In this document: in pieces, positions 1-44,604 of the stretch
Numbering within the stretch: the stretch's first letter is position 1
Layout of the letters: every line of letters begins with the position of its first letter
From: a virus
Lineage: Duplodnaviria; Caudoviricetes
Reading direction: 5' to 3' (one strand)
IMG/VR virus record: IMGVR_UViG_3300027974_001530
DNA: 64,000 nt
Notes under the pieces: generated by a model
Told to the model about the DNA's origin: nothing
The model's input: only the letters and a program-made list of their open reading frames with translations
The model's database searches: none
Position numbers and translations under genes: made by a program

Positions 1-13
1 TAAATATATTTTG

Positions 14-88
14 TGGTCCCAGCAGGACTCGAACCTGCGACCCCTTGATTATGAGTCAAGTGCTACTAACCAACTGAGCTATAGGACC
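14..88 (-). tRNA. tRNA(CAU), most likely Ile2 (lysidine type)
   Basis: Cloverleaf GGUCCUA/UGGGACC, loop CU-CAU-AA; C4:G69 and C5:G68 as in TilS substrates; paired 1:72, so not an initiator. Confidence 0.85.
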
Positions 89-93
89 TTTGA

Positions 94-167
94 TGTCAGG
101 GTGGGATTCGAACCCACAATGAGCAACCATAAAGGACTCGGCACCATGCCTCATTACACTCCTGACA
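94..167 (-). ncRNA. tRNA-like RNA (copy 1), no canonical anticodon arm
   Basis: 7-bp acceptor UGUCAGG/CCUGACA and perfect T-arm GUGGG-UUCGAAU-CCCAC; core is paralogous to 1883-1957. Confidence 0.65.
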
Positions 168-272
168 AACAACGACTCTTCAGCATTCTACTCCCCGCAC
201 ATACATAAATGTAACACGAAATTGTATCTAATTTAACCCTACGTTGGCGGTACGGGTACTGAAGTTTATCAT

Positions 273-359
273 TGGTACTCGAAGAGGGACTCGAACCCTC
301 ACAACCCACTGGTCAACAGAGCTTAAACCTGTCGTGTCTACCAATTCCACCATCCGAGC
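273..359 (-). tRNA. tRNA-Leu(UAA)
   Basis: Class II cloverleaf, loop UU-UAA-GC, encoded CCA. Confidence 0.93.
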
Positions 360-449
360 ATTTTAAAGAGTTATTTTCTCTTTCTTACCATAAAGATAAA
401 CAAAACAAATAATACAAATAATATTGGTGTCATAATTTTTTAATATTTG

Positions 450-523
450 TAGTCAGGACAGGACTCGAACCTGCAATCTCCCCAACATTCTGTCGGGGCG
501 CGTTACCAATTAGCCACCTGACT
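450..523 (-). ncRNA. tRNA-like RNA with 7-bp anticodon stem and 5-nt loop (AGAAU)
   Basis: Acceptor AGUCAGG/CCUGACU, T-arm GCAGG-UUCGAGU-CCUGU, arm CCCCGAC-AGAAU-GUUGGGG. Confidence 0.65.
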
Positions 524-531
524 AAATATTG

Positions 532-670
532 TTGATAGTGATGGAGTACCCTTCTCGCTCCAATCTTAACTGCGTCTTCTGAGTTTTCTCAGGGCCCCGG
601 CAGAGGGTGCTGAATTCCTGATCCACTCTGGATTGTCGACATCCGTTGAGGTGGGGAAAACCACTATCAA
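532..670 (-). ncRNA. Candidate structured ncRNA (~140 nt)
   Basis: GC-rich island closed by 9-bp TTGATAGTG/CACTATCAA; internal hairpins CUGAG-AAAA-CUCAG and CAGAG/CUCUG. Confidence 0.5.
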
Positions 671-674
671 TATT

Positions 675-683
675 TCAAAGAAC
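675..683 (-). promoter_or_regulatory. boxA-like antitermination site
   Basis: GTTCTTTGA on the transcribed strand; also at 2651-2659 and 7139-7147. Confidence 0.5.
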
Positions 684-690
684 TCTCTTT

Positions 691-766
691 TGGCGGAGAT
701 TACGGGAGTCGAACCCGCTCCGAACGCCGTGACAGGGCGACATCTTAACCATTTGACCTAATCTCC
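691..766 (-). tRNA. tRNA-Asp(GUC)
   Basis: Cloverleaf, loop CU-GUC-AC, G73, encoded CCA. Confidence 0.93.
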
Positions 767-826
767 AATAACCACACTTTAAAACCGTAGAGGTACAACT
801 TGTGTGCTATGTTGTTCATTTCATTG

Positions 827-898
827 TAGTCCCACCGGGAGTCGAACCCGACTTTCCAGGATGAAAACCTGGCGACCTAACCGATAGTCGATGGGACC
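827..898 (-). tRNA. tRNA-Glu(UUC)
   Basis: Cloverleaf, stem CCAGG/CCUGG, loop UU-UUC-AU. Confidence 0.93.
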
Positions 899-909
899 AT
901 TTTGTTTTA

Positions 910-1191
910 TTACAAACCTAACATTTCACCAACTTTTTTGAAATGTTTTTCAATTTTATTCAAAGAGGAGGTAGCCTTTTGTTTGGTTTTGAAGTACACG
1001 TAGAACTGACCACTTTCAGAATCAAATTCACCATCAATCTTTAAGACATTCTGAACAAAACTTTCAAACTCATATGCGTCTTCCCATTCACGGATTGTGT
1101 TTTTGTTTGGGTATCCTGTCAAACAATAATCATATCCCTCAATCTTTATAATTCTTAAACCTACTGTTTTAATTGTCTCTGTGTTTGTCAT
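910..1191 (-). CDS. Hypothetical protein
   Basis: 93-aa ORF directly behind a Bacteroidota-type promoter. Confidence 0.75.
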   Translation of the reverse strand: MTNTETIKTVGLRIIKIEGYDYCLTGYPNKNTIREWEDAYEFESFVQNVLKIDGEFDSESGQFYVYFKTKQKATSSLNKIEKHFKKVGEMLGL

Positions 1192-1208
1192 AGTTCTTTA
1201 TTTTTGTT

Positions 1209-1242
1209 CTACAAAGATATGTAATCTATTTTGATCTACCAA
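1209..1242 (-). promoter_or_regulatory. Bacteroidota sigma-A type promoter
   Basis: TTTGGTAG...TATCTTTG, matching TTTG-N19-21-TAnnTTTG. Confidence 0.7.
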
Positions 1243-1250
1243 ATCTTTTT

Positions 1251-1406
1251 TTAAATTTTTTTGTGGGACCCGCTCCCCACCCTAAACTTGTACTTCGTTC
1301 TATTAAGCGTTTTTTTCAGTTTCTTCAACCAGTCAGTATTCGTGTTAACTCTAATCATTTTAACTTTCGATGACTCTGAGGTTCCTGATAAAACTTCTCT
1401 CATCAT
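1251..1406 (-). CDS. Possible small basic protein (51 aa)
   Basis: Manually read ORF MMREVLSG...GSHKKI filling the gap between tRNAs. Confidence 0.3.
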   Translation of the reverse strand: MMREVLSGTSESSKVKMIRVNTNTDWLKKLKKTLNRTKYKFRVGSGSHKKI

Positions 1407-1428
1407 TCATTTGTATTAATTGTTTATT

Positions 1429-1501
1429 TGGTGGACACTGTGGGAATCGAACCCATACGATCTGATTGCAAATCAGTCGACCTGCCGTCGGCATCAGGCC
1501 C
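1429..1501 (-). tRNA. tRNA-Ala(UGC), divergent
   Basis: Loop UU-UGC-AA, G3:U70 Ala identity pair, A73, encoded CCA; imperfect acceptor stem. Confidence 0.8.
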
Positions 1502-1506
1502 ATTTG

Positions 1507-1578
1507 TGCGGGTAGAATGAATCGAACACTCGTCTCCACATTGGAAGTGTGGAGTAATAACCATTATACGATACCCGC
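1507..1578 (-). tRNA. tRNA-Gly(UCC)
   Basis: Cloverleaf, stem CCACA/UGUGG, loop CU-UCC-AA. Confidence 0.92.
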
Positions 1579-1584
1579 TTATTG

Positions 1585-1665
1585 TACTGACGGTTGGATT
1601 CGAACCAACGTTTTAAACTTACCACTACAGTCATAGACGATATAAGCGTCCACTGGTACGTCAGC
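1585..1665 (-). ncRNA. tRNA-like RNA lacking a D-arm, with a CU-UAU-AU loop
   Basis: Acceptor GCUGACG/CGUCAGU, T-arm GUUGG/CCAAC, hairpin GGACG-CUUAUAU-CGUCU nested in UACCA/UGGUA. Confidence 0.6.
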
Positions 1666-1671
1666 ATTTAG

Positions 1672-1742
1672 TAGCGGATTCAGGGCTCGAACCTGGCCTC
1701 AGGGTTATGAGCCCCGTGTGCTACCAATTACACTAAACCGCA
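1672..1742 (-). tRNA. Initiator tRNA-fMet(CAU)
   Basis: CU-CAU-AA loop, three G-C pairs at the base of the anticodon stem, 1:72 mismatch. Confidence 0.85.
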
Positions 1743-1747
1743 ATATG

Positions 1748-1869
1748 TAGGTAAAACAGGATTCGAACCTGTACGATATAGTTCCCTTTTCAAGAGACAT
1801 CCCCAGCTATATCTCGGTGACTTCTTACGGGGAATAAACCTAAGCGTCTGCCAATTCCGCCACTTACCT
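1748..1869 (-). ncRNA. Enlarged (122 nt) Leu-like tRNA-like RNA
   Basis: Acceptor AGGUAAG/UUUACCU, Leu-type D-arm GCG-GAAUUGGCAGA-CGC, T-arm ACAGG/CCUGU, ~70-nt core with GAUAUAG/CUAUAUC stem and no clean anticodon arm. Confidence 0.6.
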
Positions 1870-1882
1870 ATTTAAAATTTTT

Positions 1883-1957
1883 TTGTCAGGGCCGGACTCG
1901 AACCGGATAAGCAACCTATAGGATTCGGGCACCGTCCCTCATTACGCCCACCTGACA
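1883..1957 (-). ncRNA. tRNA-like RNA (copy 2), paralog of 94-167
   Basis: Acceptor UGUCAGG/CCUGACA, T-loop UUCGAGU, shared core GUAAUGAGG..GGUGCC..GA.UCC..GGUUGCU. Confidence 0.65.
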
Positions 1958-1969
1958 AATTTATGTAGT

Positions 1970-2054
1970 TAGTAGTTGACTCACACTCTTGTTTCACCAT
2001 CTTGAGCCAACAGGTTAATGTACTTTACAAGTTTCCCGTTTCTTACAACCACTA
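1970..2054 (-). ncRNA. Candidate structured RNA (85 nt)
   Basis: 9-bp closing stem UAGUGGUUG/CAACUACUA and inner CUUGU/ACAAG. Confidence 0.35.
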
Positions 2055-2086
2055 TATTTTTATTTCAATGAACTTCTTCTGTCTTC

Positions 2087-2125
2087 ACGGGAGTAGGACA
2101 CCAACCTCTCACTTCCTACCCCCGT
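2087..2125 (-). other. 12-bp GC-rich hairpin at the predicted transcript 5' end
   Basis: ACGGGGGUAGGA/UCCUACUCCCGU just downstream of promoter 2136-2170. Confidence 0.5.
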
Positions 2126-2135
2126 TGTTTGTCTT

Positions 2136-2170
2136 ACAAATATACAAGGTTTTTTCTAATCTACCAAACT
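2136..2170 (-). promoter_or_regulatory. Bacteroidota sigma-A type promoter
   Basis: TTTGGTAG...TATATTTG. Confidence 0.7.
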
Positions 2171-2321
2171 TTTTTTGTGTTTTTCTTTCCTTGTGTAATT
2201 ATTTTTTAAATCCATAGATCTAGTAACAAATCTACCATCAAAAAAACCTTGTTCTTTTTGAGCAACCCTTTGACTACCCAAGATCATCTTATGTACGATA
2301 TTTTTTTCCTTTGTTTTCATT

Positions 2322-2612
2322 TTAACAGTATCTTAAAATTTGAGTAATTAATTTATTTATATCCTCTTTAGTCTGATAACCCAAAACATCATTAGTTATT
2401 TTTGTGTCATAAGAAATTTCCCAATCATCTTTTGTTCCTTTAATAACGGCGACCTCATAATCATCATCATCTGAAGTATATGATCCACCCCCACCAAAAG
2501 GAGATTTAAATCTTACAACCGAGATTCCGTATCCTCCAGGAAAAAACAGTAATCCGTGAACCCCATTACCAATACCATGTGGTTTAAACTCTATATCATC
2601 AAATGTTATCAT
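2322..2612 (-). CDS. Hypothetical protein
   Basis: ORF track 2322-2654; start moved to MITFDD, which follows TATCTTTG at 2617-2624. Confidence 0.75.
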   Translation of the reverse strand: MITFDDIEFKPHGIGNGVHGLLFFPGGYGISVVRFKSPFGGGGSYTSDDDDYEVAVIKGTKDDWEISYDTKITNDVLGYQTKEDINKLITQILRYC

Positions 2613-2658
2613 AAAACAAAGATACTGTTTATTTTTTAATTTCCAAAATTTCAAAGAA

Positions 2659-2691
2659 CAAAAAAACCCACCTCTTTTGGAGATGGGTTTT
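2659..2691 (-). terminator. Intrinsic terminator (attenuator 2)
   Basis: AAAACCCAUCUC-CAAAA-GAGGUGGGUUUUUUU, followed by a boxA-like GTTCTTTGA. Confidence 0.85.
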
Positions 2692-2715
2692 CAAAATTTA
2701 TTATGTGTTAAATTA

Positions 2716-2790
2716 TCATACCATCTCCTTATAGGAACGATCCTCAGCTATCGCCAATCCGCCTAATAATATGATATGTAAATTTTTCAT
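2716..2790 (-). CDS. Putative attenuator leader peptide 2 (MKNLHIILLGGLAIAEDRSYKEMV)
   Basis: 24-aa ORF between an ATATTTATAA motif and a terminator; its 3' end GGAGAUGG is complementary to the terminator arm CCAUCUCC. Confidence 0.75.
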   Translation of the reverse strand: MKNLHIILLGGLAIAEDRSYKEMV

Positions 2791-2850
2791 TTGCGTTTTT
2801 ATTTGTTTTGTTATAAATATATGATACTTTTTAAAAGTGTCAAGTTTTAT

Positions 2851-3183
2851 TTAATAATTTCCATCTTCATCGTCGTAATCTTCATCTTCTTCACCAACTA
2901 TTGCGTAGTTAAGTTCATCAAGAATTACATTAACAGGGATCTCATCACCTTCTTCATTATAAAACATACCTTCAGTTCCATACTCAGAATAGTCAACAAG
3001 AGTAGACCCCTCTTCAACAAGTTCATTATACATGTCAATGACATCTTGTGGGTTAGCACTTTTTCCAAGTTCCATTCTAACACCCTCATACATACTTGGG
3101 ATACGAATCATACCCTCTTTATTTTCATTAATTACACGTTTAACAATACGTGATAAGTCTCTTTCTGTTAATCTATTTCTCAT
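2851..3183 (-). CDS. Acidic protein with LTExDL leader
   Basis: MRNRLTERDLSRIVKRVINE leader; paralogous C-terminus with 3207-3539. Confidence 0.85.
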   Translation of the reverse strand: MRNRLTERDLSRIVKRVINENKEGMIRIPSMYEGVRMELGKSANPQDVIDMYNELVEEGSTLVDYSEYGTEGMFYNEEGDEIPVNVILDELNYAIVGEEDEDYDDEDGNY

Positions 3184-3206
3184 TTTTATGTTTTTTATAT
3201 TTTTTA

Positions 3207-3539
3207 TTATGCATATTCTTCATCATCAAAGTCTTCGTCCTCATCGGCATTATAAAAACCTTCTTGGTTTAATAATTTTTCAATTTCATCAGCTAAATCT
3301 TCATTATTATCAGCATATAACGCCTCAATAATATCAAATTCATCCATTGAATTGATTTCTTCAATGTCATATCCACATTCATTTTCAAGGAAATCTCTCG
3401 CCTCTTCAATTAACTCTTGAAGTTCTTCACTATAGTACGGATCATACATACTTCTGTCTTTATAGTTGTCATTTTCATTAATTACACGTTTAACAATTCT
3501 TGTTAAATCTGATTCTGTTAGTCTAATTACTTTTTTCAT
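3207..3539 (-). CDS. Acidic protein with LTExDL leader
   Basis: MKKVIRLTESDLTRIVKRVINE leader; TATTTAT upstream. Confidence 0.85.
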   Translation of the reverse strand: MKKVIRLTESDLTRIVKRVINENDNYKDRSMYDPYYSEELQELIEEARDFLENECGYDIEEINSMDEFDIIEALYADNNEDLADEIEKLLNQEGFYNADEDEDFDDEEYA

Positions 3540-3578
3540 TAAATGTTTTATTAATAAATATTCAATATACGATTTAAA

Positions 3579-3821
3579 TCACCACTTTCTTTTTTTATCA
3601 AGTTTTTTTGTTTTTTGATCCTCGATCATAGTTGCGTACTCATCTTTGGTTAATCTTTTAAAAGACTCATTATCCACATTACCAAATCTTTTTTTTGCAC
3701 TCGCCATTACTTGGATGAAGTTCTTACTCCACAAAATATTTGACCCTGCGACTTTACCGTTTTGAATTATATCAAAAACGTATAGGTATTCTCCTTCTTT
3801 ATTTTTCATCAACTTTTCCAT
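3579..3821 (-). CDS. Hypothetical protein
   Basis: ORF track 3579-3953 trimmed to MEKLMK because the upstream part overlaps tRNAs. Confidence 0.65.
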   Translation of the reverse strand: MEKLMKNKEGEYLYVFDIIQNGKVAGSNILWSKNFIQVMASAKKRFGNVDNESFKRLTKDEYATMIEDQKTKKLDKKRKW

Positions 3822-3840
3822 CTTCACTTTTTTTTGTTTG

Positions 3841-3914
3841 TACCTCCGGCAGGACTCGAACCTGCAAAATTCACTTTCTAAGAGTGACGTGTATACCAAT
3901 TCCACCACGAAGGC
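3841..3914 (-). tRNA. tRNA-Leu(UAG), short variable loop
   Basis: Leu-type D-arm, loop CU-UAG-AA, variable region only AUUUU. Confidence 0.88.
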
Positions 3915-3921
3915 ATTTTTG

Positions 3922-3994
3922 AGCTCAGGGAGGGATTCGAACCCCCGTACCAAGGTTTTGCAGACCTGGGCCTAAACCACTCGACCACCTGAGC
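3922..3994 (-). tRNA. tRNA-Cys(GCA)
   Basis: Loop CU-GCA-AA, U73. Confidence 0.92.
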
Positions 3995-3996
3995 AA

Positions 3997-4452
3997 TTAA
4001 CGGCAGTGGTGATCTGCCGCTCTTGTTGCAATTTGATTGTCAGGTTTAATATTTGCTTTATAACCTAACGACGTTGCCCACCCAACAACAGGAGAAACAA
4101 GTTTTGAACTGTAATGTTTATCTTCACAATTATAATCCAAATCTATTTCAACCTTAACTTTTACTTTTTGAGTTAACCATTCGGCAACCTCAATTGAATA
4201 ATCGGCTTCATTCCAAAGACGTGTCCACTTGTCTTTTATTTTTTTCACTTTTTGTTTGTGTAGGATGTAGTGAACACCACGATTACCATACCTGTAAGCA
4301 ATTACCGTAACATATACGGTACTTCTTCTATGGTTTTGTGAATCGGTTCCAATATGGATCTCAACCCATGGACATTCCTTTAAAACATCTAAGGTGTGTT
4401 TAACCACATCAGGTATCGCTTCACCATTAATTGTCCTAAATACTCTGTTCAT
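3997..4452 (-). CDS. RNase H-like protein (YkuK/DUF458-like)
   Basis: Motifs IHIGTDSQ, RLWNEADYS, EIDLDYN, RAADH. Confidence 0.7.
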   Translation of the reverse strand: MNRVFRTINGEAIPDVVKHTLDVLKECPWVEIHIGTDSQNHRRSTVYVTVIAYRYGNRGVHYILHKQKVKKIKDKWTRLWNEADYSIEVAEWLTQKVKVKVEIDLDYNCEDKHYSSKLVSPVVGWATSLGYKANIKPDNQIATRAADHHCR

Positions 4453-4468
4453 TATTTCTTTTTATTTG

Positions 4469-4541
4469 TGGACAGAGAGGGTGTCGAACCCCCGACTCCA
4501 GGATCTTCAATCCTGAGCTCTACCAACTGAGCTACCTGTCC
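4469..4541 (-). tRNA. tRNA-Phe(GAA)
   Basis: Cloverleaf, loop UU-GAA-GA. Confidence 0.93.
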
Positions 4542-4548
4542 TTCTTCA

Positions 4549-4601
4549 GGGAGGACTTGGTTGAGGTATCCTAATGGTTCTACCCTCAACTCTCGCCTCC
4601 C
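4549..4601 (-). other. GC-rich two-helix hairpin between CDS and tRNA-Phe
   Basis: GGGAGG/CCUCCC plus GUUGAG/CUCAAC. Confidence 0.45.
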
Positions 4602-4604
4602 GTC

Positions 4605-5099
4605 TTATTTAACTTCAAACGCATGAAGTAATACACGTTTTTTCTTGGTTGAATCCTCGTGGTTACCAATTACCACACCATCTTTGATTGTGAAAGCGTG
4701 ACGACTAACTAACATAAAGAATGTCCCAATAGGGTTTTGTTTTGTAAATGTACCCACAGTCATTTTACGTTTAACTCTCTCACCCTTTACTTTAACATCG
4801 TACTCCAAAGTGTGTCTACGGTAATTGTTTAATTTACCAACACACTTAACTTTTTTGTAGTTTACTTGACTTCTATTTTCTGCAAGTTTAGTCATTTTAT
4901 CTACAGTACCATAAGTACCGTTACGATCTCTACGACCAAAATTTTCTCTAACGTATTTGTGAGCGTAATCGTAAGACACATCAAAACAAGATGCAAATGC
5001 TCTTACAACACAATCGTTGGTTTCATTTTTTGCGATTGCAGATTCTTCATAACCTTTAATGGCTTTTCCTGTATTACAATATGGTAGTGCGTCTTTCAT
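4605..5099 (-). CDS. Hypothetical protein (NDCVVRA...H motif, possibly papain-like fold)
   Basis: 164-aa ORF; host-type promoter at 5101-5134. Confidence 0.75.
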   Translation of the reverse strand: MKDALPYCNTGKAIKGYEESAIAKNETNDCVVRAFASCFDVSYDYAHKYVRENFGRRDRNGTYGTVDKMTKLAENRSQVNYKKVKCVGKLNNYRRHTLEYDVKVKGERVKRKMTVGTFTKQNPIGTFFMLVSRHAFTIKDGVVIGNHEDSTKKKRVLLHAFEVK

Positions 5100-5145
5100 A
5101 CTGTAAAGATACGAAATTTTTTTTAACTGGCAAAATTAATTTTTG

Positions 5146-5216
5146 CACATGGTGTTAGAATCGAACTAACCCGTCGAGGTTTTGGAGACCTGACCGACAC
5201 CTTGTCTGTACCATGT
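5146..5216 (-). tRNA. tRNA-Trp(CCA)
   Basis: Loop CU-CCA-AA, G73, short D-loop. Confidence 0.88.
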
Positions 5217-5224
5217 GTGTTTTG

Positions 5225-5297
5225 TACCCCCACAGAGATTCAAACTCCGATCTTTCCCTTAGAAGGGGAACGTCCTGTTCAGTTGGACGATGGGGGC
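5225..5297 (-). tRNA. tRNA-Arg(UCU)
   Basis: Stem UUCCC/GGGAA, loop CU-UCU-AA. Confidence 0.92.
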
Positions 5298-5301
5298 AAA
5301 T

Positions 5302-5478
5302 AAAAGATGATAAATGACTTTATCAGGAATCTGGGGTTCGTATCACTACGACGCTTCACACACCATTAGAGAGTTGGGTTGTTACATCAATACAATTAAG
5401 ATTGAATACCTTTCCTTAGTGTGTACCCTTACGACACGTCTCTCCACGTCTGTCATTCTACGTTTCTTATCATCTTTT
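5302..5478 (-). ncRNA. Candidate structured ncRNA (~175 nt)
   Basis: Perfect 12-bp closing stem AAAAGAUGAUAA/UUAUCAUCUUUU, then AAUGAC/GUCAUU, hairpins ACGU/ACGU and UCGUA/UACGA. Confidence 0.55.
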
Positions 5479-5479
5479 G

Positions 5480-5552
5480 TACCTTCGGCGAGACTCAAAC
5501 TCACATCTTGTGGTCCGTAGCCACAGGTTCTATTCTATTTAACTACGAAGGT
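5480..5552 (-). tRNA. tRNA-Arg(ACG)
   Basis: Stem UGUGG/CCACA, loop CU-ACG-GA. Confidence 0.92.
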
Positions 5553-5568
5553 AATTAAAGAATTTTGG

Positions 5569-5643
5569 TCAACCACTCGCATCCCACCAATCTCTTGTAT
5601 CAAACTTTCTGTAGTCCAAACGATAACATCTCCTACTACTCAT
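5569..5643 (-). CDS. Possible micro-ORF MSSRRCYRLDYRKFDTRDWWDASG
   Basis: Manually read 24-aa ORF between tRNA-His and tRNA-Arg(ACG). Confidence 0.3.
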   Translation of the reverse strand: MSSRRCYRLDYRKFDTRDWWDASG

Positions 5644-5687
5644 TCTCAACTCACTTGCCTAAGCCTTGTCCGTTGTAAATTCTTTTG

Positions 5688-5761
5688 GGTGAATGGTGGG
5701 TTTCGATCCCACTACTTTCGGCTTCACAAACCGACGCTCTCCCGATTGAGCTACAAACACC
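5688..5761 (-). tRNA. tRNA-His(GUG)
   Basis: Loop UU-GUG-AA, G-1:C73 pair. Confidence 0.9.
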
Positions 5762-5767
5762 ATATAG

Positions 5768-5835
5768 TCCCGTATGTTGGACTTGAACCAACCTCAAGTC
5801 GGATATGAGCCAACTTTGATCCCTGATCATACGGG
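5768..5835 (-). tRNA. Compact (68 nt) tRNA(CAU), presumed elongator Met
   Basis: Acceptor CCCGUAU/AUACGGG, minimal D-arm GAU-CAGGG-AUC, 6-bp anticodon stem AGUUGG/CCGACU, loop CU-CAU-AU. Confidence 0.75.
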
Positions 5836-5849
5836 TTGTTGTTTTATAT

Positions 5850-5932
5850 CTATCCGGAAATTTTCCTAATAGATTATTCAATTGTAGATGTCTATCCGGA
5901 AAAAAAGTCATCCTATCCGGAAAATTTCCGGA
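5850..5932. repeat. CTATCCGGAAA x3 plus one inverted TTTCCGGA
   Basis: Copies at 5850, 5892 and 5913; inverted copy at 5925. Confidence 0.8.
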
Positions 5933-5941
5933 TTTTAATCG

Positions 5942-6027
5942 AGGAAGACATTGGAATCGAACCAAATACCCTTACGGGTACATCTCGCTTAGCAGGCGGA
6001 CCCTATCTCCATCAAGGTTTATCTTCC
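5942..6027 (-). tRNA. tRNA-Ser(GCU)
   Basis: Long variable arm GUACCC-GUAA-GGGUAU, loop CU-GCU-AA. Confidence 0.9.
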
Positions 6028-6085
6028 ATAGAGTGTGGTACTCCTGCAGTAGTTGGGGCACCCACACAAGTTATTCCCCTTTTTG

Positions 6086-6158
6086 TGCTCACGATAGGTT
6101 ACGATCCTATTCTCTCCACGATATCAGCGTGGTGCTTTCCCGATTAAGCTACGTGAGC
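6086..6158 (-). tRNA. tRNA-Ile(GAU)
   Basis: Stem CCACG/CGUGG, loop CU-GAU-AU. Confidence 0.92.
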
Positions 6159-6165
6159 ATTGTTG

Positions 6166-6238
6166 CGGACAAGGTAGGGTACGATCCTACAACCCTCGTA
6201 TTAACAGTACGATGCTCTCCCAATTGAGCTACTTGTCC
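6166..6238 (-). tRNA. tRNA-Asn(GUU)
   Basis: Stem UCGUA/UACGA, loop CU-GUU-AA, G73. Confidence 0.93.
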
Positions 6239-6244
6239 ATTTTT

Positions 6245-6330
6245 TGGTGGGAGAGGAGGGACTCGAACCCCCAAGGTCTCACGACGACAGATTTACAGTC
6301 TGCTGAGCCAACCAATTGCTCAACTCTCCC
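6245..6330 (-). tRNA. tRNA-Tyr(GUA)
   Basis: Loop CU-GUA-AA, long variable arm, encoded CCA. Confidence 0.93.
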
Positions 6331-6338
6331 AGTTCAGG

Positions 6339-6454
6339 AAAGGGGAAGATGGTTCCGTGGACATCCCCTTTTATGATTGGCGTTACTATGACAGTTAAAA
6401 CTCCGACATAACTACGAACTACTGACACGTTAACGTTATATCATTCCCCAATCA
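6339..6454 (-). ncRNA. Candidate structured ncRNA (~115 nt)
   Basis: Stems UGAUUGG/CCAAUCA, GAUAUAAC/GUUAUGUC and AAAGGGGA/UCCCCUUU. Confidence 0.45.
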
Positions 6455-6461
6455 ACCTTTG

Positions 6462-6535
6462 TACACCCTACAGGGATCGAACCTGTGACCTGTTGTATGT
6501 AAAACAACCGCTACTACCATCTGAGCTAAAGGTGC
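6462..6535 (-). tRNA. tRNA-Val(UAC)
   Basis: Stem GUUGU/ACAAC, loop UU-UAC-AU. Confidence 0.92.
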
Positions 6536-6537
6536 GT

Positions 6538-6753
6538 TTATGATGTTATCATTTTAATACTTTCAATTGTGGTAGAGTACATTCCTTGTTCAATATAAGG
6601 TTTACTATCTTTTAATAGTTTCAAAACAATTTCTGTTGCCTCGTTTTCGGATTTACCTTGTTTAACCAATCTTACGATTGCTCTCTCACATTCTTCCCCA
6701 ACCTTAACCATTCCGTTTGGCAGTCCTTTTTTAATTTTCTCTACTTTATTCAT
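6538..6753 (-). CDS. Hypothetical protein
   Basis: 71-aa ORF behind promoter TTTGGTAG...TAACTTTG (6755-6789). Confidence 0.7.
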   Translation of the reverse strand: MNKVEKIKKGLPNGMVKVGEECERAIVRLVKQGKSENEATEIVLKLLKDSKPYIEQGMYSTTIESIKMITS

Positions 6754-6796
6754 AGTACAAAGTTAATGGTTTTTTTTAATCTACCAAATTTTTTTG

Positions 6797-6872
6797 TGTC
6801 CCCGACAGGGTTCGAACCTGTGACCCCTCCATTAAAAGTGGAGTGCTCTGAAACCAACTGAGCTACGAAGAC
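6797..6872 (-). tRNA. tRNA-Lys(UUU)
   Basis: Stem CUCCA/UGGAG, loop CU-UUU-AA. Confidence 0.93.
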
Positions 6873-6877
6873 ATTAG

Positions 6878-6953
6878 TCGGGATACCAGGACTCAAACCT
6901 GGATGATGTCCACTTCCCAAAAGTGGCGACTTAGTCAATTAGTCCACATCCCG
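6878..6953 (-). tRNA. tRNA-Pro(UGG)
   Basis: C1:G72, loop UU-UGG-GA. Confidence 0.9.
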
Positions 6954-6959
6954 TTATAG

Positions 6960-7043
6960 AGGAAGAAGTAGGTGTCGATCCCAATACCTTTCGGTACCGC
7001 CCGTTTTCAAGACGGGGTCACAAGCCGTTGTGATTCATCTTCC
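6960..7043 (-). tRNA. tRNA-Ser(UGA)
   Basis: Stem CCCGU/ACGGG, loop CU-UGA-AA, long variable arm. Confidence 0.9.
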
Positions 7044-7049
7044 TTATTG

Positions 7050-7121
7050 TTGTTCCCCAAGGGTTCGAACCTCGATTCCATGGACCAAAACCATGTGTCC
7101 TGCCGATTAGACGAGGGAACA
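7050..7121 (-). tRNA. tRNA-Gln(UUG)
   Basis: U1:A72, stem CAUGG/CCAUG, loop UU-UUG-GU. Confidence 0.92.
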
Positions 7122-7158
7122 TTAATGAATCCAATATGTCAAAGAACTTTTTCTTTTG

Positions 7159-7231
7159 AGGTTCCTATCAGGGTCGAACTGATGACTCCGGGTTACAAAG
7201 CCGGGATATTACCAAACTATACTAAGGAACC
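7159..7231 (-). tRNA. tRNA-Thr(UGU)
   Basis: Acceptor GGUUCCU/AGGAACC, loop UU-UGU-AA. Confidence 0.9.
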
Positions 7232-7245
7232 AAATTTTTGGGTAT

Positions 7246-7275
7246 AAAAAAACCCTAACTGTTTTGAGTTAGGGT
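7246..7275 (-). terminator. Intrinsic terminator (attenuator 1)
   Basis: ACCCUAACU-CAAAAC-AGUUAGGGU-UUUUUU, ~15 nt before the first tRNA. Confidence 0.88.
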
Positions 7276-7307
7276 CTTATATTTCTTATATGTTTAGTTA
7301 ATCTTTA

Positions 7308-7418
7308 TCAACTCATAAATAAAAATGCCCTATTATGCGACTTAAGCGTACGATACACGTTAAACGACCACTGAATGCTCGGGTTACAAATGTTCATATG
7401 TCTATTAGTTGTTTTCAT
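7308..7418 (-). CDS. Putative attenuator leader peptide 1 (MKTTNRHMNICNPSIQWSFNVYRTLKSHNRAFLFMS)
   Basis: 36-aa ORF between ATATTTATAA and the terminator; has a codon for each of the 18 downstream tRNAs. Confidence 0.8.
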   Translation of the reverse strand: MKTTNRHMNICNPSIQWSFNVYRTLKSHNRAFLFMS

Positions 7419-7424
7419 CTTGTT

Positions 7425-7432
7425 ATAAATAT
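7425..7432 (-). promoter_or_regulatory. Phage (putative late) promoter motif ATATTTAT
   Basis: Same motif sits ~5-35 nt upstream of more than 25 genes, e.g. 2813, 3554, 14612, 20627(+), 23753(+), 24440(+), 30017(+). Confidence 0.6.
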
Positions 7433-7482
7433 ATTGTTTTTTCTAAAAATTTTAATTCTTGTACAAATATATGTGATTTTTT

Positions 7483-7599
7483 TTAATTGACAATCGTTTT
7501 TTCAATATTTTCCTGTTCTTCATCCAATCTACGTAAGAACACGTAGTAATCTTCCGATTCTATAAATTCGTTATGAATTAATTCTAAAATTTCTTCCAT
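7483..7599 (-). CDS. Possible small acidic protein (38 aa)
   Basis: Manually read ORF MEEILELIHNEF...KTIVN. Confidence 0.4.
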   Translation of the reverse strand: MEEILELIHNEFIESEDYYVFLRRLDEEQENIEKTIVN

Positions 7600-7600
7600 A

Positions 7601-7789
7601 TTATATTTTTTTTACTTCGTATATGTGACCTGAATCAGAATTAGTTTGGAAGATCTCTTTCATTTTTTCAGCCTCTTCGATGGTGTTAAATTCCCACACT
7701 TCAGTTTCGGTATTTAATAATATTACAGGAAGTCTTTTACCTGAAATTCCTTTATTATTTGTTTTTACGTGTTTAATTATAATGAACAT
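7601..7789 (-). CDS. Hypothetical protein
   Basis: 62-aa ORF. Confidence 0.7.
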   Translation of the reverse strand: MFIIIKHVKTNNKGISGKRLPVILLNTETEVWEFNTIEEAEKMKEIFQTNSDSGHIYEVKKI

Positions 7790-7833
7790 AAGTTTTTTAT
7801 TTAAAAATACTTAATACTTAAAACAATATCAAG

Positions 7834-9534
7834 TTAAAATCTTAATTTTGGTAGATCAAGTCTTCTATTTGGTTTTGGCGGATTAAACTCATCATTAATT
7901 TGTCTCTTTGTTTTTTGTTTTATTTGTTCAACATTTTTTCTTTGTTCTGTTACTATATTAACTTCAGTTACTTTTTCTTTGTTTTTAAGAATATTAAATA
8001 AAGGATTGTCCGAAACTACTTTTTGTTTTTTACGAATAAAAACTTCTTCTATTATTTTTGGTTCTTTGTTAAAAATAGAAACCAAACATTTTTCATTATT
8101 TGTTTCAACTATTTCAGGGTAAACAAACGTTTCTAAAATCCCATCATGGTCAATAATTTTAAAATCCCTTATGTTTAATTTTTTAGGATTGCCGTCACCT
8201 TTTTTAGATTTTGATATTTGTTGATATTGGAATCTTTTTGGTGATCTTAGTCCGGTGTCAGTACGACTTGTTAAACCATTATCATGAATTCTTCTTTTAA
8301 ATAAAGTTACAGGTGTATGTAGTATTTTACATTTTCTCTTATATAATCTACCCATAAAATCAGAATCAGCAGCACACATCCAAGGTTCAAAACCATTCAT
8401 ATTTAAGAATAATTCCTTAGTTATTGCAAACACACCCTCACCAAAAAGTGACTTATTTGACGGTGTAATACCAACACCAAAATCTTTATATTTTGGCTTT
8501 ATACAATCATATTTATCAATATTATTAATAATTGTTGACACTAATTCTTTTTCTGATATATCATCAGAATCAAAAAATAATAAATTTTTAGAATTACATA
8601 TACTTGTTAAAGTGTTCTTAATTGAGTAAGGACCTTCATTTTCATTGAAATAAAAAAATGTTACGTTTTTTGGGAACTTTTTTCCTTTAATAAAATCCAT
8701 AGTTTCTTTACACCCGTCAACCCCAATTAAAATCTCCACATTATAATTTTCTGTGGATTTGACCAAAGAATTTATACATTCGTCAAGGTAATTTGTATTC
8801 TTATATGTTGGTACAATTATAGATAAATCAAAATTATGTTTAGTCACTAATTTAGTTTTTAATCTTTCAGTATAATTCATTTTAGATTCATGATCCCCAT
8901 GAATTACCATAGATTTTTTGGTGTGGTATAGGAAAAACTTTTTTTTGTTTAATCTATCAGTTATTTGATGACCAACACCAGAACTTAGATTTGGGTTTTT
9001 AGACCACCTAGATAGTGGTATATCATATATTTTATAATCCAAGGACTCAAAAAACTTTTTTTCACAAATAAAACATAGGTCATTCCATTGCGTTTGATAA
9101 AAATCCCCATAATCCACCCCTTTAGGGTAACCCCAATTATCTCTAAGAACTCTATCGTCTGTTAATATGTTTAAACATATTTTTTTTCTTGAGTCAATTT
9201 TTATGTACATCTCTTTAGTTTCTTCAAAAAAATTATCAACTAATTTAATGTCGTCAGGTAAATAAATAAAATATTTAGAATGAATATTTTTTACAAATTC
9301 AAAAGTTTTATTAATAACATTATAATACTTTTTTTTACCCATGTTTGGGTAAATATCTATTTTTTTTACGTCATACCTACTAAGGTCATATTCAACGTCG
9401 CTACCATCATTAAAAACCGCAACCAAAACATTATAATCTTTTTTTTGGTTATTTATATCATCTAATAACCTTTTTAAAAAATCAGGTCTATTATATGTGG
9501 TAATTAAAATACAAAAATCATAAATTTTATCCAT
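7834..9534 (-). CDS. Double-domain GT2-family glycosyltransferase
   Basis: Two GT-A starts (LITTYNRPDFL; IIVPTYKN...FFDSDD), AADSDF motif. Confidence 0.85.
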   Translation of the reverse strand: MDKIYDFCILITTYNRPDFLKRLLDDINNQKKDYNVLVAVFNDGSDVEYDLSRYDVKKIDIYPNMGKKKYYNVINKTFEFVKNIHSKYFIYLPDDIKLVDNFFEETKEMYIKIDSRKKICLNILTDDRVLRDNWGYPKGVDYGDFYQTQWNDLCFICEKKFFESLDYKIYDIPLSRWSKNPNLSSGVGHQITDRLNKKKFFLYHTKKSMVIHGDHESKMNYTERLKTKLVTKHNFDLSIIVPTYKNTNYLDECINSLVKSTENYNVEILIGVDGCKETMDFIKGKKFPKNVTFFYFNENEGPYSIKNTLTSICNSKNLLFFDSDDISEKELVSTIINNIDKYDCIKPKYKDFGVGITPSNKSLFGEGVFAITKELFLNMNGFEPWMCAADSDFMGRLYKRKCKILHTPVTLFKRRIHDNGLTSRTDTGLRSPKRFQYQQISKSKKGDGNPKKLNIRDFKIIDHDGILETFVYPEIVETNNEKCLVSIFNKEPKIIEEVFIRKKQKVVSDNPLFNILKNKEKVTEVNIVTEQRKNVEQIKQKTKRQINDEFNPPKPNRRLDLPKLRF

Positions 9535-44478: not shown

Positions 44479-44604
44479 AATTATTTTTCTTTATTTATAA
44501 ATATATGTTATCTTAAAAAAATCATTTTTTTCATAATTAATTTATTAAGGATTCCTTTTTTCTGAGAGACCCATTAAGTAAACGACTTAAATAATTTAAA
44601 AATA

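Follow-up and report, generated by a model that had tools for sequence, protein, structure and literature searches.

Organisation of the leader-2 locus

The 64,000-nucleotide (nt) stretch of viral DNA analysed here (Duplodnaviria; Caudoviricetes; IMG/VR record IMGVR_UViG_3300027974_001530; hereafter the window) is AT-rich, with a G + C content of 31%, and carries 21 transfer RNA (tRNA) genes called by ARAGORN with default settings, every one of them on the minus strand. Along this strand a leader element (leader 1, 7432-7246) is followed by tRNA block A (7231-3840), three small open reading frames (ORFs) and a second leader element, leader 2 (2843-2643), which is the subject of this report; below it a host-type promoter and small ORFs lead to tRNA block B (~1958-13). 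Leader 2 is probably a ribosome-mediated (leader-peptide) transcription attenuator with demand-dependent read-through into the second tRNA block of a Bacteroidota jumbo phage. This function had been proposed in the original prediction, made from the letters of the window, and the proposal was supported, as every part of it that was testable by comparison held.

The relatives used for comparison were drawn from IMG/VR and Joint Genome Institute metagenome contigs (lake viromes and metagenomes). The leader-2 set comprised 52 unique sequences, equal to 36 distinct ORF sequences, while the pairing statistics and the folds of variants were based on an alignment of 24 leader-2 sequences. The DNA runs containing the stretch are freshwater and lake metagenomes, and the related IMG/VR contigs reach up to 214 kilobases (kb) with an estimated completeness of 71%. 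No close relative was found in the GenBank phage collection, where matches occurred at the tRNA level only.

The promoter, the 24-codon ORF, the intrinsic terminator and the boxA described previously were all located on the minus strand between 2843 and 2643. The features of the locus are as follows:

2816-2843, minus strand: leader promoter TTGACA-16 nt-TATATT, 11/12 consensus matches, kept in the relatives except L023
2820-2811, minus strand: ATATTTATAA promoter motif, overlapping the TTGACA-16-TATATT promoter
2716-2790, minus strand: leader ORF of 24 sense codons and TGA (ATG at 2790; sense codons 2790-2719; TGA 2718-2716)
2740-2772, minus strand: proposed sensing codons 7-17 (Ile-AUA, Leu-UUR, Gly, Ala, Glu and Asp only), from the codon-box match and the relatives
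2721-2728, minus strand: region 2, the antiterminator 5' strand GGAGATGG, within codons 21-24 and ending 2 nt before the stop
2679-2686, minus strand: region 3, CCATCTCC, common to the antiterminator and the terminator 5' arm, from folding and covariation
2660-2692, minus strand: intrinsic terminator, with a 13-pair hairpin (2692-2662) and a run of seven T (2666-2660)
2643-2659, minus strand: boxA GTTCTTTGAAATTTTGG, directly after the terminator, its core invariant in the relatives
2617-2647, minus strand: host-type Bacteroidota promoter TTTG ... TATCTTTG, below the attenuator, a predicted independent transcription start
2612-2322, minus strand: ORF after the host-type promoter, PHROG 4074, unknown function
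13-1958, minus strand: tRNA block B, the presumed regulated genes, with Met(CAU) twice, Ile(UAU)-like, Gly(UCC), Ala(UGC)-like, Glu(UUC), Asp(GUC), Leu(UAA) and odd tRNA-like genes
7246-7432, minus strand: sister module leader 1, with the same promoter motif, a 36-codon ORF and a terminator, ahead of tRNA block A

An A-rich 5' leader of ~18 nt stands ahead of the leader-2 ORF. The cmscan analysis of positions 1-9000 (E up to 1) gave no Rfam match in 2643-2843, the amino-acid leader families and the T-box included.

Alternative folds of the leader-2 RNA

A perfect antiterminator of 8 base pairs (bp) had been reported for leader 2, and GGAGATGG (2728-2721) is indeed the exact complement of CCATCTCC (2686-2679), with 8/8 Watson-Crick pairs. 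In the alignment, 96.4% of cells form a standard pair and 2/8 pairs are changed on both sides; pairing falls to 44-68% when the 3' partner is slid by 1-3 columns. The terminator stem is paired in 95.7% of cells, with two compensatory pairs. Regions 2, 3 and 4 change in concert and form three haplotypes: GGAGATGG/CCATCTCC/GAGGTGGG, GAAGATGG/CCATCTTC/AAGATGGG and GGAGAGGG/CCCTCTCY/AGAGGGG. The three haplotypes represent two independent events, a modest number, yet each is a three-way match.

Folding of the terminator against the antiterminator gave the two structures expected of a switch. When the RNA ended before the terminator 3' arm, the antiterminator was the minimum-energy fold in 24/24 variants (-5.6 to -18.9 kcal/mol), while in the full RNA the terminator was the minimum-energy fold in 23/24 (-15 to -21 kcal/mol). 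The exception is L034, where the antiterminator remained the minimum-energy fold with the 3' arm present. For the sequence of the window, the antiterminator fold had an energy of -13.9 kcal/mol (z -3.8) and the terminator fold of -17.6 kcal/mol (z -3.7). An upstream 8-bp complement was found for only one of the nine strong terminators of the window, that of leader 2, and shuffling of the upstream sequence yielded such a complement in 108 of 20000 trials (0.54%). A few variants carry one mismatch in the antiterminator. Comparison of orthologous leaders from diverged relatives showed conservation and covariation of the ORF, the terminator and the antiterminator pairing.

Reading frame and ribosome geometry

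The leader-2 ORF is open in 52/52 unique variants with a length of 22 or 24 codons, and its two indels are of 3 nt each. The N-terminus of the encoded peptide, MKNLHI, is conserved. The stop lies in frame 2 nt past region 2 in all variants, so region 2 would occupy the P and E sites of a terminating ribosome. The first base of region 2 is the third of codon 21, about half a ribosome footprint beyond codon 17. The ribosome footprint extends ~12 nt past the A-site codon; given this and the start of region 2, region 2 would be left free by a ribosome with its A site no further than codon 17. Codon 17 is also where the run of matched codons stops in the window, and in the 22-codon forms the run stops within one codon of the corresponding position. 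As far as geometry is concerned, the proposed masking of region 2 by a ribosome at the stop, and its exposure by a ribosome stalled further upstream, fits the fixed stop and the end of the matched codons.

The Shine-Dalgarno (SD)-like sequence AAGGAG is unlikely to be a ribosome-binding site for a mini-ORF: it covaries with the terminator instead, and SD pairing is generally not used by Bacteroidota.

Codon content of leader 2 and the tRNA genes of block B

Codon boxes were assigned to the block that holds their tRNA using ARAGORN (default and 90% threshold) and Rfam. The block-B boxes together with Ala account for 32% of the codons in the long ORFs of the phage. Codons 7-17 of leader 2 (2772-2740) read as had been described, that is, as 11 block-B codons in a row; the probability of this is ~3.6e-5 under independent draws, and no such run occurred in 14982 real 23-codon windows of phage ORFs. 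Across the relatives, the sensing stretch holds 42 block-B states against 12 others (here and below, each position-codon state is counted once), while in the last seven codons block-B states make up 8/43. Leu in leader 2 is encoded by TTR in 64/65 cases, and Ile in the core by ATA. Exchanges within the core stay in the block-B set: Ile, Glu and Gly replace one another at one position, and the forms GLAIAED, GADLEAGD and GGDLAED occur.

It had been claimed that all six elongator tRNAs matching these codons lie in block B. This holds for Leu(UAA), the readers of Ile-AUA, Gly, Glu and Asp, but not for tRNA-Ala(UGC), which was called in the window by neither ARAGORN nor Rfam. ARAGORN called tRNA-Ala(UGC) in relatives only, at a relaxed threshold and directly after Gly(UCC), which is the position of the Ala-like sequence of the window. 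Block B further holds two Met(CAU), an Ile(UAU)-like gene, a Phe(GAA)-like gene and odd tRNA-like genes. In the relatives the order after the leader-2 module is Leu-UAA, Met, Ile-UAU-like, Gly, Ala, Glu, Asp; the order in block A, which ends ahead of this module, is Thr Gln (Ser) Pro Lys Val Tyr Asn Ile (Ser) His Arg Arg Trp Phe Cys Leu-UAG. The distance from boxA to the start of tRNA-Leu(UAA) is 17-22 nt in many relatives, and in these the module stands directly ahead of the tRNA genes. A co-occurring genome variant in DNA run X1, which comes from the habitat of the window itself, has the same arrangement: position 2658 is joined to 365, ~2.3 kb (2657-366) are missing, and boxA is followed by tRNA-Leu(UAA).

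In G003, block A is without an Arg tRNA and leader 1 without an Arg codon, while Arg(UCU) is found in block B and AGA at codon 10 of leader 2. AGA in the leader-2 core accompanies Arg(UCU) in block B in three lineages, and neither was seen in the others. This suggests that, in some lineages, changes in the tRNA set and in the leader go hand in hand.

Leader 1 and the division of codons between the two leaders

The codons of leader 2 had been described as the complement of those of leader 1, and this division persists in the relatives, synonymous choice included. Leader 1 of the window has no block-B codon in codons 2-30 (chance 3.8e-5; 0/14106 real windows), and across the relatives only 3 of 163 states in codons 2 to n-8 belong to block B. 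Before the last eight codons, Gly, Ala, Asp, Glu, TTR and ATA codons are almost absent. Leu in leader 1 is encoded by CTN in 26/26 cases, whereas 71% of the Leu codons of the phage are TTR, and Ile is encoded by ATT. The choice mirrors the tRNAs: block A holds Leu(UAG) and Ile(GAU), and block B holds Leu(UAA) and the readers of AUA. Judged from the codons, the synonymous choice for Leu in the two leaders cannot be explained by peptide function.

Leader 1 shares the architecture of leader 2, with a conserved ORF of 35-37 codons (22 distinct ORFs) and a terminator with many compensatory changes. A simple single-helix antiterminator was not found for leader 1 by RNAalifold. Folds of individual sequences gave a composite antiterminator, in which the 5' arm, containing CCC, is paired with an AGGG region (codons 27-30) and a T-A to C-G exchange occurs at one position. 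Its helix is of 8-13 bp in the L057/L041 clade and weaker in the window (5 bp and A/U helices). The start-codon region of leader 1 can also pair with a conserved TTTTCATTT near the end of the ORF.

Promoters and boxA

The ATATTTATAA motif that overlaps the leader promoter is a general promoter motif of the phage. It occurs 10 times in the window, where 2.1 copies would be expected, and most copies stand 5-20 nt ahead of the ATG of ordinary genes. This promoter class, in which TTTTA is followed after ~11-13 nt by ATATTTATAA, is distinct from the host-type TTTG/TAnnTTTG promoters. Its further members in the window, recognised by the motif, are the following:

21697 and 24440, plus strand: ATATTTATAA-class promoters
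31790, 32774, 37988, 44504, 46561 and 47395, minus strand: ATATTTATAA-class promoters

The boxA-like site reported after the terminator proved to be a genuine boxA motif of Bacteroidota rrn spacers. Matches to the 17-mer GTTCTTTGAMATWTTGG lie mostly in Bacteroidota genomes, and in 6/6 Bacteroidota rrn contigs checked it was located in the 16S-23S spacer, between the spacer tRNAs and the 23S gene. A search of the literature text with the boxA sequence returned unrelated primer matches only. The identity of the motif points to a host among the Bacteroidota, and by boxA and promoter type this host is probably a freshwater member of the Chitinophagia or Sphingobacteriia. The placement of the putative boxA sites in the tRNA blocks mimics that of an rrn operon. 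With boxA placed right behind the conditional terminator, resistance to termination would be conferred on those transcripts alone that have got past the attenuator. More copies of boxA (GTTCTTTGA or GTTCATTGA) are present on the minus strand at 7139-7147, after tRNA-Thr, and at 2065-2073 and 675-683, behind host-type promoters in the tRNA blocks.

The caveat that host-type promoters lie downstream was confirmed, with TAnnTTTG at 2624-2617, 2144-2137 and 1219-1212 on the minus strand; the attenuator would therefore govern only part of the tRNA output, from a promoter of another class.

Proposed mechanism

Transcription would start from the TTGACA/TATATT promoter, and a ribosome would translate the 24-codon leader. 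With charged tRNAs for AUA, UUR, GGN, GCN, GAR and GAY plentiful, the ribosome would reach the UGA and cover GGAGAUGG while the polymerase makes the terminator; the hairpin would form and the transcript would end at the T run. If any of these tRNAs were short, the ribosome would stall within codons 7-17 and GGAGAUGG would be free to pair with CCAUCUCC before the terminator 3' arm exists, which would give read-through. The polymerase would then transcribe boxA, presumably acquire Nus factors, and run through the downstream small genes and structured tRNA genes. The new tRNAs would relieve the stall, a negative feedback holding the decoding capacity for the leader-2 codon set. Leader 2 is written almost wholly in the codons of the downstream tRNAs, and the phage would therefore probably make more tRNA only when decoding falls short.

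The sister leader at 7246-7432 would act in the same way for the remaining codon boxes. We give even chances to the further idea that the two leaders jointly form a codon-by-codon gauge of decoding capacity, in which each samples its own block and the phage switches on the half of the tRNAs that the cell is short of. The shortage itself could be caused by a host codon-usage mismatch, by host tRNA decay in infection or by anticodon-nuclease defences. Such a gauge would amount to a self-regulating supply of tRNA and possibly to a sensor for counter-defence, and no leader-peptide attenuator in control of tRNA genes would have been known before it.

Alternative explanations

Several observations weigh against the attenuator as described. 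Host-type promoters with their own boxA are present below it and inside block B, and in the window a 96-codon gene and other sequence separate it from the first tRNA. The codon match exists at the level of codon boxes and is imperfect, with intruders in the core of several relatives (Ser or Thr at position 8, Arg at position 10); for U34 tRNAs to decode GGC and GCT, superwobble has to be assumed. The leader-2 codons come one per tRNA and without runs, which should make the leader less sensitive than classic ones. Recent tRNA losses are not tracked, as L023 and G001 are without tRNAs whose leader codons remain. As regards the RNA, the antiterminator is down to 5+2 pairs in clade L032, and L206 (Ga0315901_10235099) combines Ser, Arg and Trp codons in the core, an off-type peptide, with an antiterminator mismatch; this may be a decaying copy. 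The predicted structural hallmarks of the leader-peptide attenuator class are all present except a clear 1:2 hairpin: the candidate anti-antiterminator hairpin (TTCC with GGAG) is weak, at 4-5 bp, and stands in one register in the 24-codon clade and in another in the 22-codon clade.

Part of these observations would suit a real leader-ORF attenuator that reports general translation capacity or coupling (ribosome supply, elongation rate) and not the particular downstream tRNAs. Such an element, which we regard as unlikely, fits the structural evidence equally well; with one or two codons per tRNA, specific sensing would be poorly served, the core of some relatives contains block-A codons, and the leader codons do not follow the recent losses. 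It does not predict, however, the split of codon boxes between the two leaders, the synonymous choice for Leu and Ile, or the joint move of Arg(UCU) and AGA in G003.

Still less probable is an ordinary small gene for a 22-24-residue peptide with its own terminator, where the 3'-end pairing would have another role, such as transcript stability or the limiting of re-initiation, and the peptide may act in trans like peTrpL. The promoter motif and the layout are those of the ordinary genes of the phage, and beside the conserved MKNLHI the N-terminal half is faintly signal-peptide-like; yet core swaps between Ile, Glu, Gly, Asp and Leu would be intolerable for a folded or membrane peptide, and the synonymous codons follow the tRNA blocks. 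By the Ile, Glu, Gly and Asp swaps and these synonymous codons, a signal-peptide remnant or functional micro-peptide was ruled out. The stop is, moreover, fixed relative to region 2, regions 2, 3 and 4 change together, and boxA follows at once, which a small gene of this kind does not account for. A chance arrangement, in which a spurious short ORF happens to stand beside the normal terminator of the upstream gene, is hardly credible. Short ORFs are abundant in AT-rich genomes and a single 8-mer complement arises in ~0.5% of shuffles, but the ORF, the pairing and the codon bias persist throughout the 52 variants although their flanks differ by replacement, the joint probabilities lie far under those of chance, and no similar module was found at random among the nine strong terminators of the window.

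Comparison with known systems

Multivalent leader-peptide attenuators of enterobacteria include the ilvGMEDA leader, with Ile, Leu and Val codons, and the thr leader, with Thr and Ile codons. Leader 2 shares with these a promoter-proximal short ORF, an intrinsic terminator, an exclusive antiterminator with its 5' strand at the ORF end, and codons for more than one amino acid. It differs in fronting tRNA genes and small phage ORFs instead of biosynthetic enzymes, and in having codons that match the downstream tRNAs instead of a synthesised amino acid. The theory of multivalent amino-acid operon attenuators has been described (PMC1183508). Leader 2 samples six to seven codon boxes once or twice, without runs, and, unlike ilvGMEDA and thr, it is found in a phage, is followed by boxA and has a complementary sister leader.

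The pheST attenuator of E. coli (pheM leader) senses one amino acid via a run of Phe codons and controls a synthetase. It resembles leader 2 in the leader-peptide control of a decoding component by the reading of its own codons, whereas several tRNAs would be sensed by leader 2, with the tRNA genes themselves under its control. T-box riboswitches work without an ORF and bind uncharged tRNA directly, by way of a specifier loop and the T-box sequence. There, as would be the case in leader 2, the status of tRNA sets the choice between terminator and antiterminator ahead of translation-related genes, but leader 2 has a conserved ORF and no T-box match. With the boxA/Nus antitermination of rrn operons leader 2 shares the 17-nt motif of the Bacteroidota 16S-23S spacer, which recurs behind the host-type promoters of the tRNA blocks; in contrast to rrn, the boxA of leader 2 stands immediately after a conditional terminator, and the binding of NusB/NusE is predicted from the identity of the motif. 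A long tRNA gene array operon of Anabaena is induced under translational stress (PMC8421152). Like block B, it is an accessory tRNA array that responds to translation trouble, but it belongs to a cyanobacterium and not a phage, and the text of that paper is without a leader ORF, terminator or attenuator.

No precedent for leader-peptide control of phage tRNA genes was found in the literature. Genes for tRNAs are widespread in phages, and little has been learned of how their expression is set. Textbook attenuation is here apparently turned around, with tRNA genes as the regulated product and the leader as a sampler of the codons that they read. If true, the attenuator would explain how a large phage fits tRNA supply to demand, and it would connect the tRNA sets of phages with the depletion of host tRNAs and with defences that target tRNAs. 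It would also be a natural sensor of small size, able to gauge decoding capacity for several codons together. As a search image for other tRNA-rich phages, the locus offers a tRNA array that is preceded by a short ORF with codons matching the array, a terminator and boxA. In a more distant relative, L011, in which a small tRNA cluster is present, a leader was looked for and none was found.

Neighbouring genes and other features

The tRNA-like genes at 92-167, 449-523 and 1882-1958 (minus strand) have a common acceptor, GTCAGG/CCTGAC, and abnormal inner arms; the calls given by ARAGORN are Ile(tat), Phe(gaa) and unknown. Because of the shared acceptor and the abnormal inner arms, the Phe(gaa) call in block B is doubtful. 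The Ala(UGC)-like sequence at ~1429-1500 (minus strand), recognised by eye only, has a G3:U70-type acceptor. Block B also includes a 122-nt tRNA with a large insert at 1747-1869 and a D-arm-poor, Ile(UAU)-like tRNA at 1585-1665, both on the minus strand. In the tRNA blocks of the relatives L023/L045, G001/L001, G005 and L019, odd or suppressor-like anticodons (tta, cta, tca, 4-base loops) were called by ARAGORN at a relaxed threshold; they may be real readers of stop codons or may have arisen as artefacts from non-canonical tRNAs.

Metatranscriptome contigs X22-X24, compared with positions 1-9000 and showing neither ends nor strand, cover tRNAs and some block-B ORFs but not 2700-3300.

Paralogous small proteins are encoded on the minus strand at 2851-3183 and 3207-3539 and by a gene starting near 44480. 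They share the N-terminal motif RLTE.DL.RIV.RVI.E and acidic tails, and no Pfam or PHROG match was obtained for any of the three. Within tRNA block A, an RNase H-like protein (PF04308, E 1e-25) is encoded at 3997-4452 on the minus strand, and a PHROG 3754 protein of unknown function is encoded at 4605-5099.

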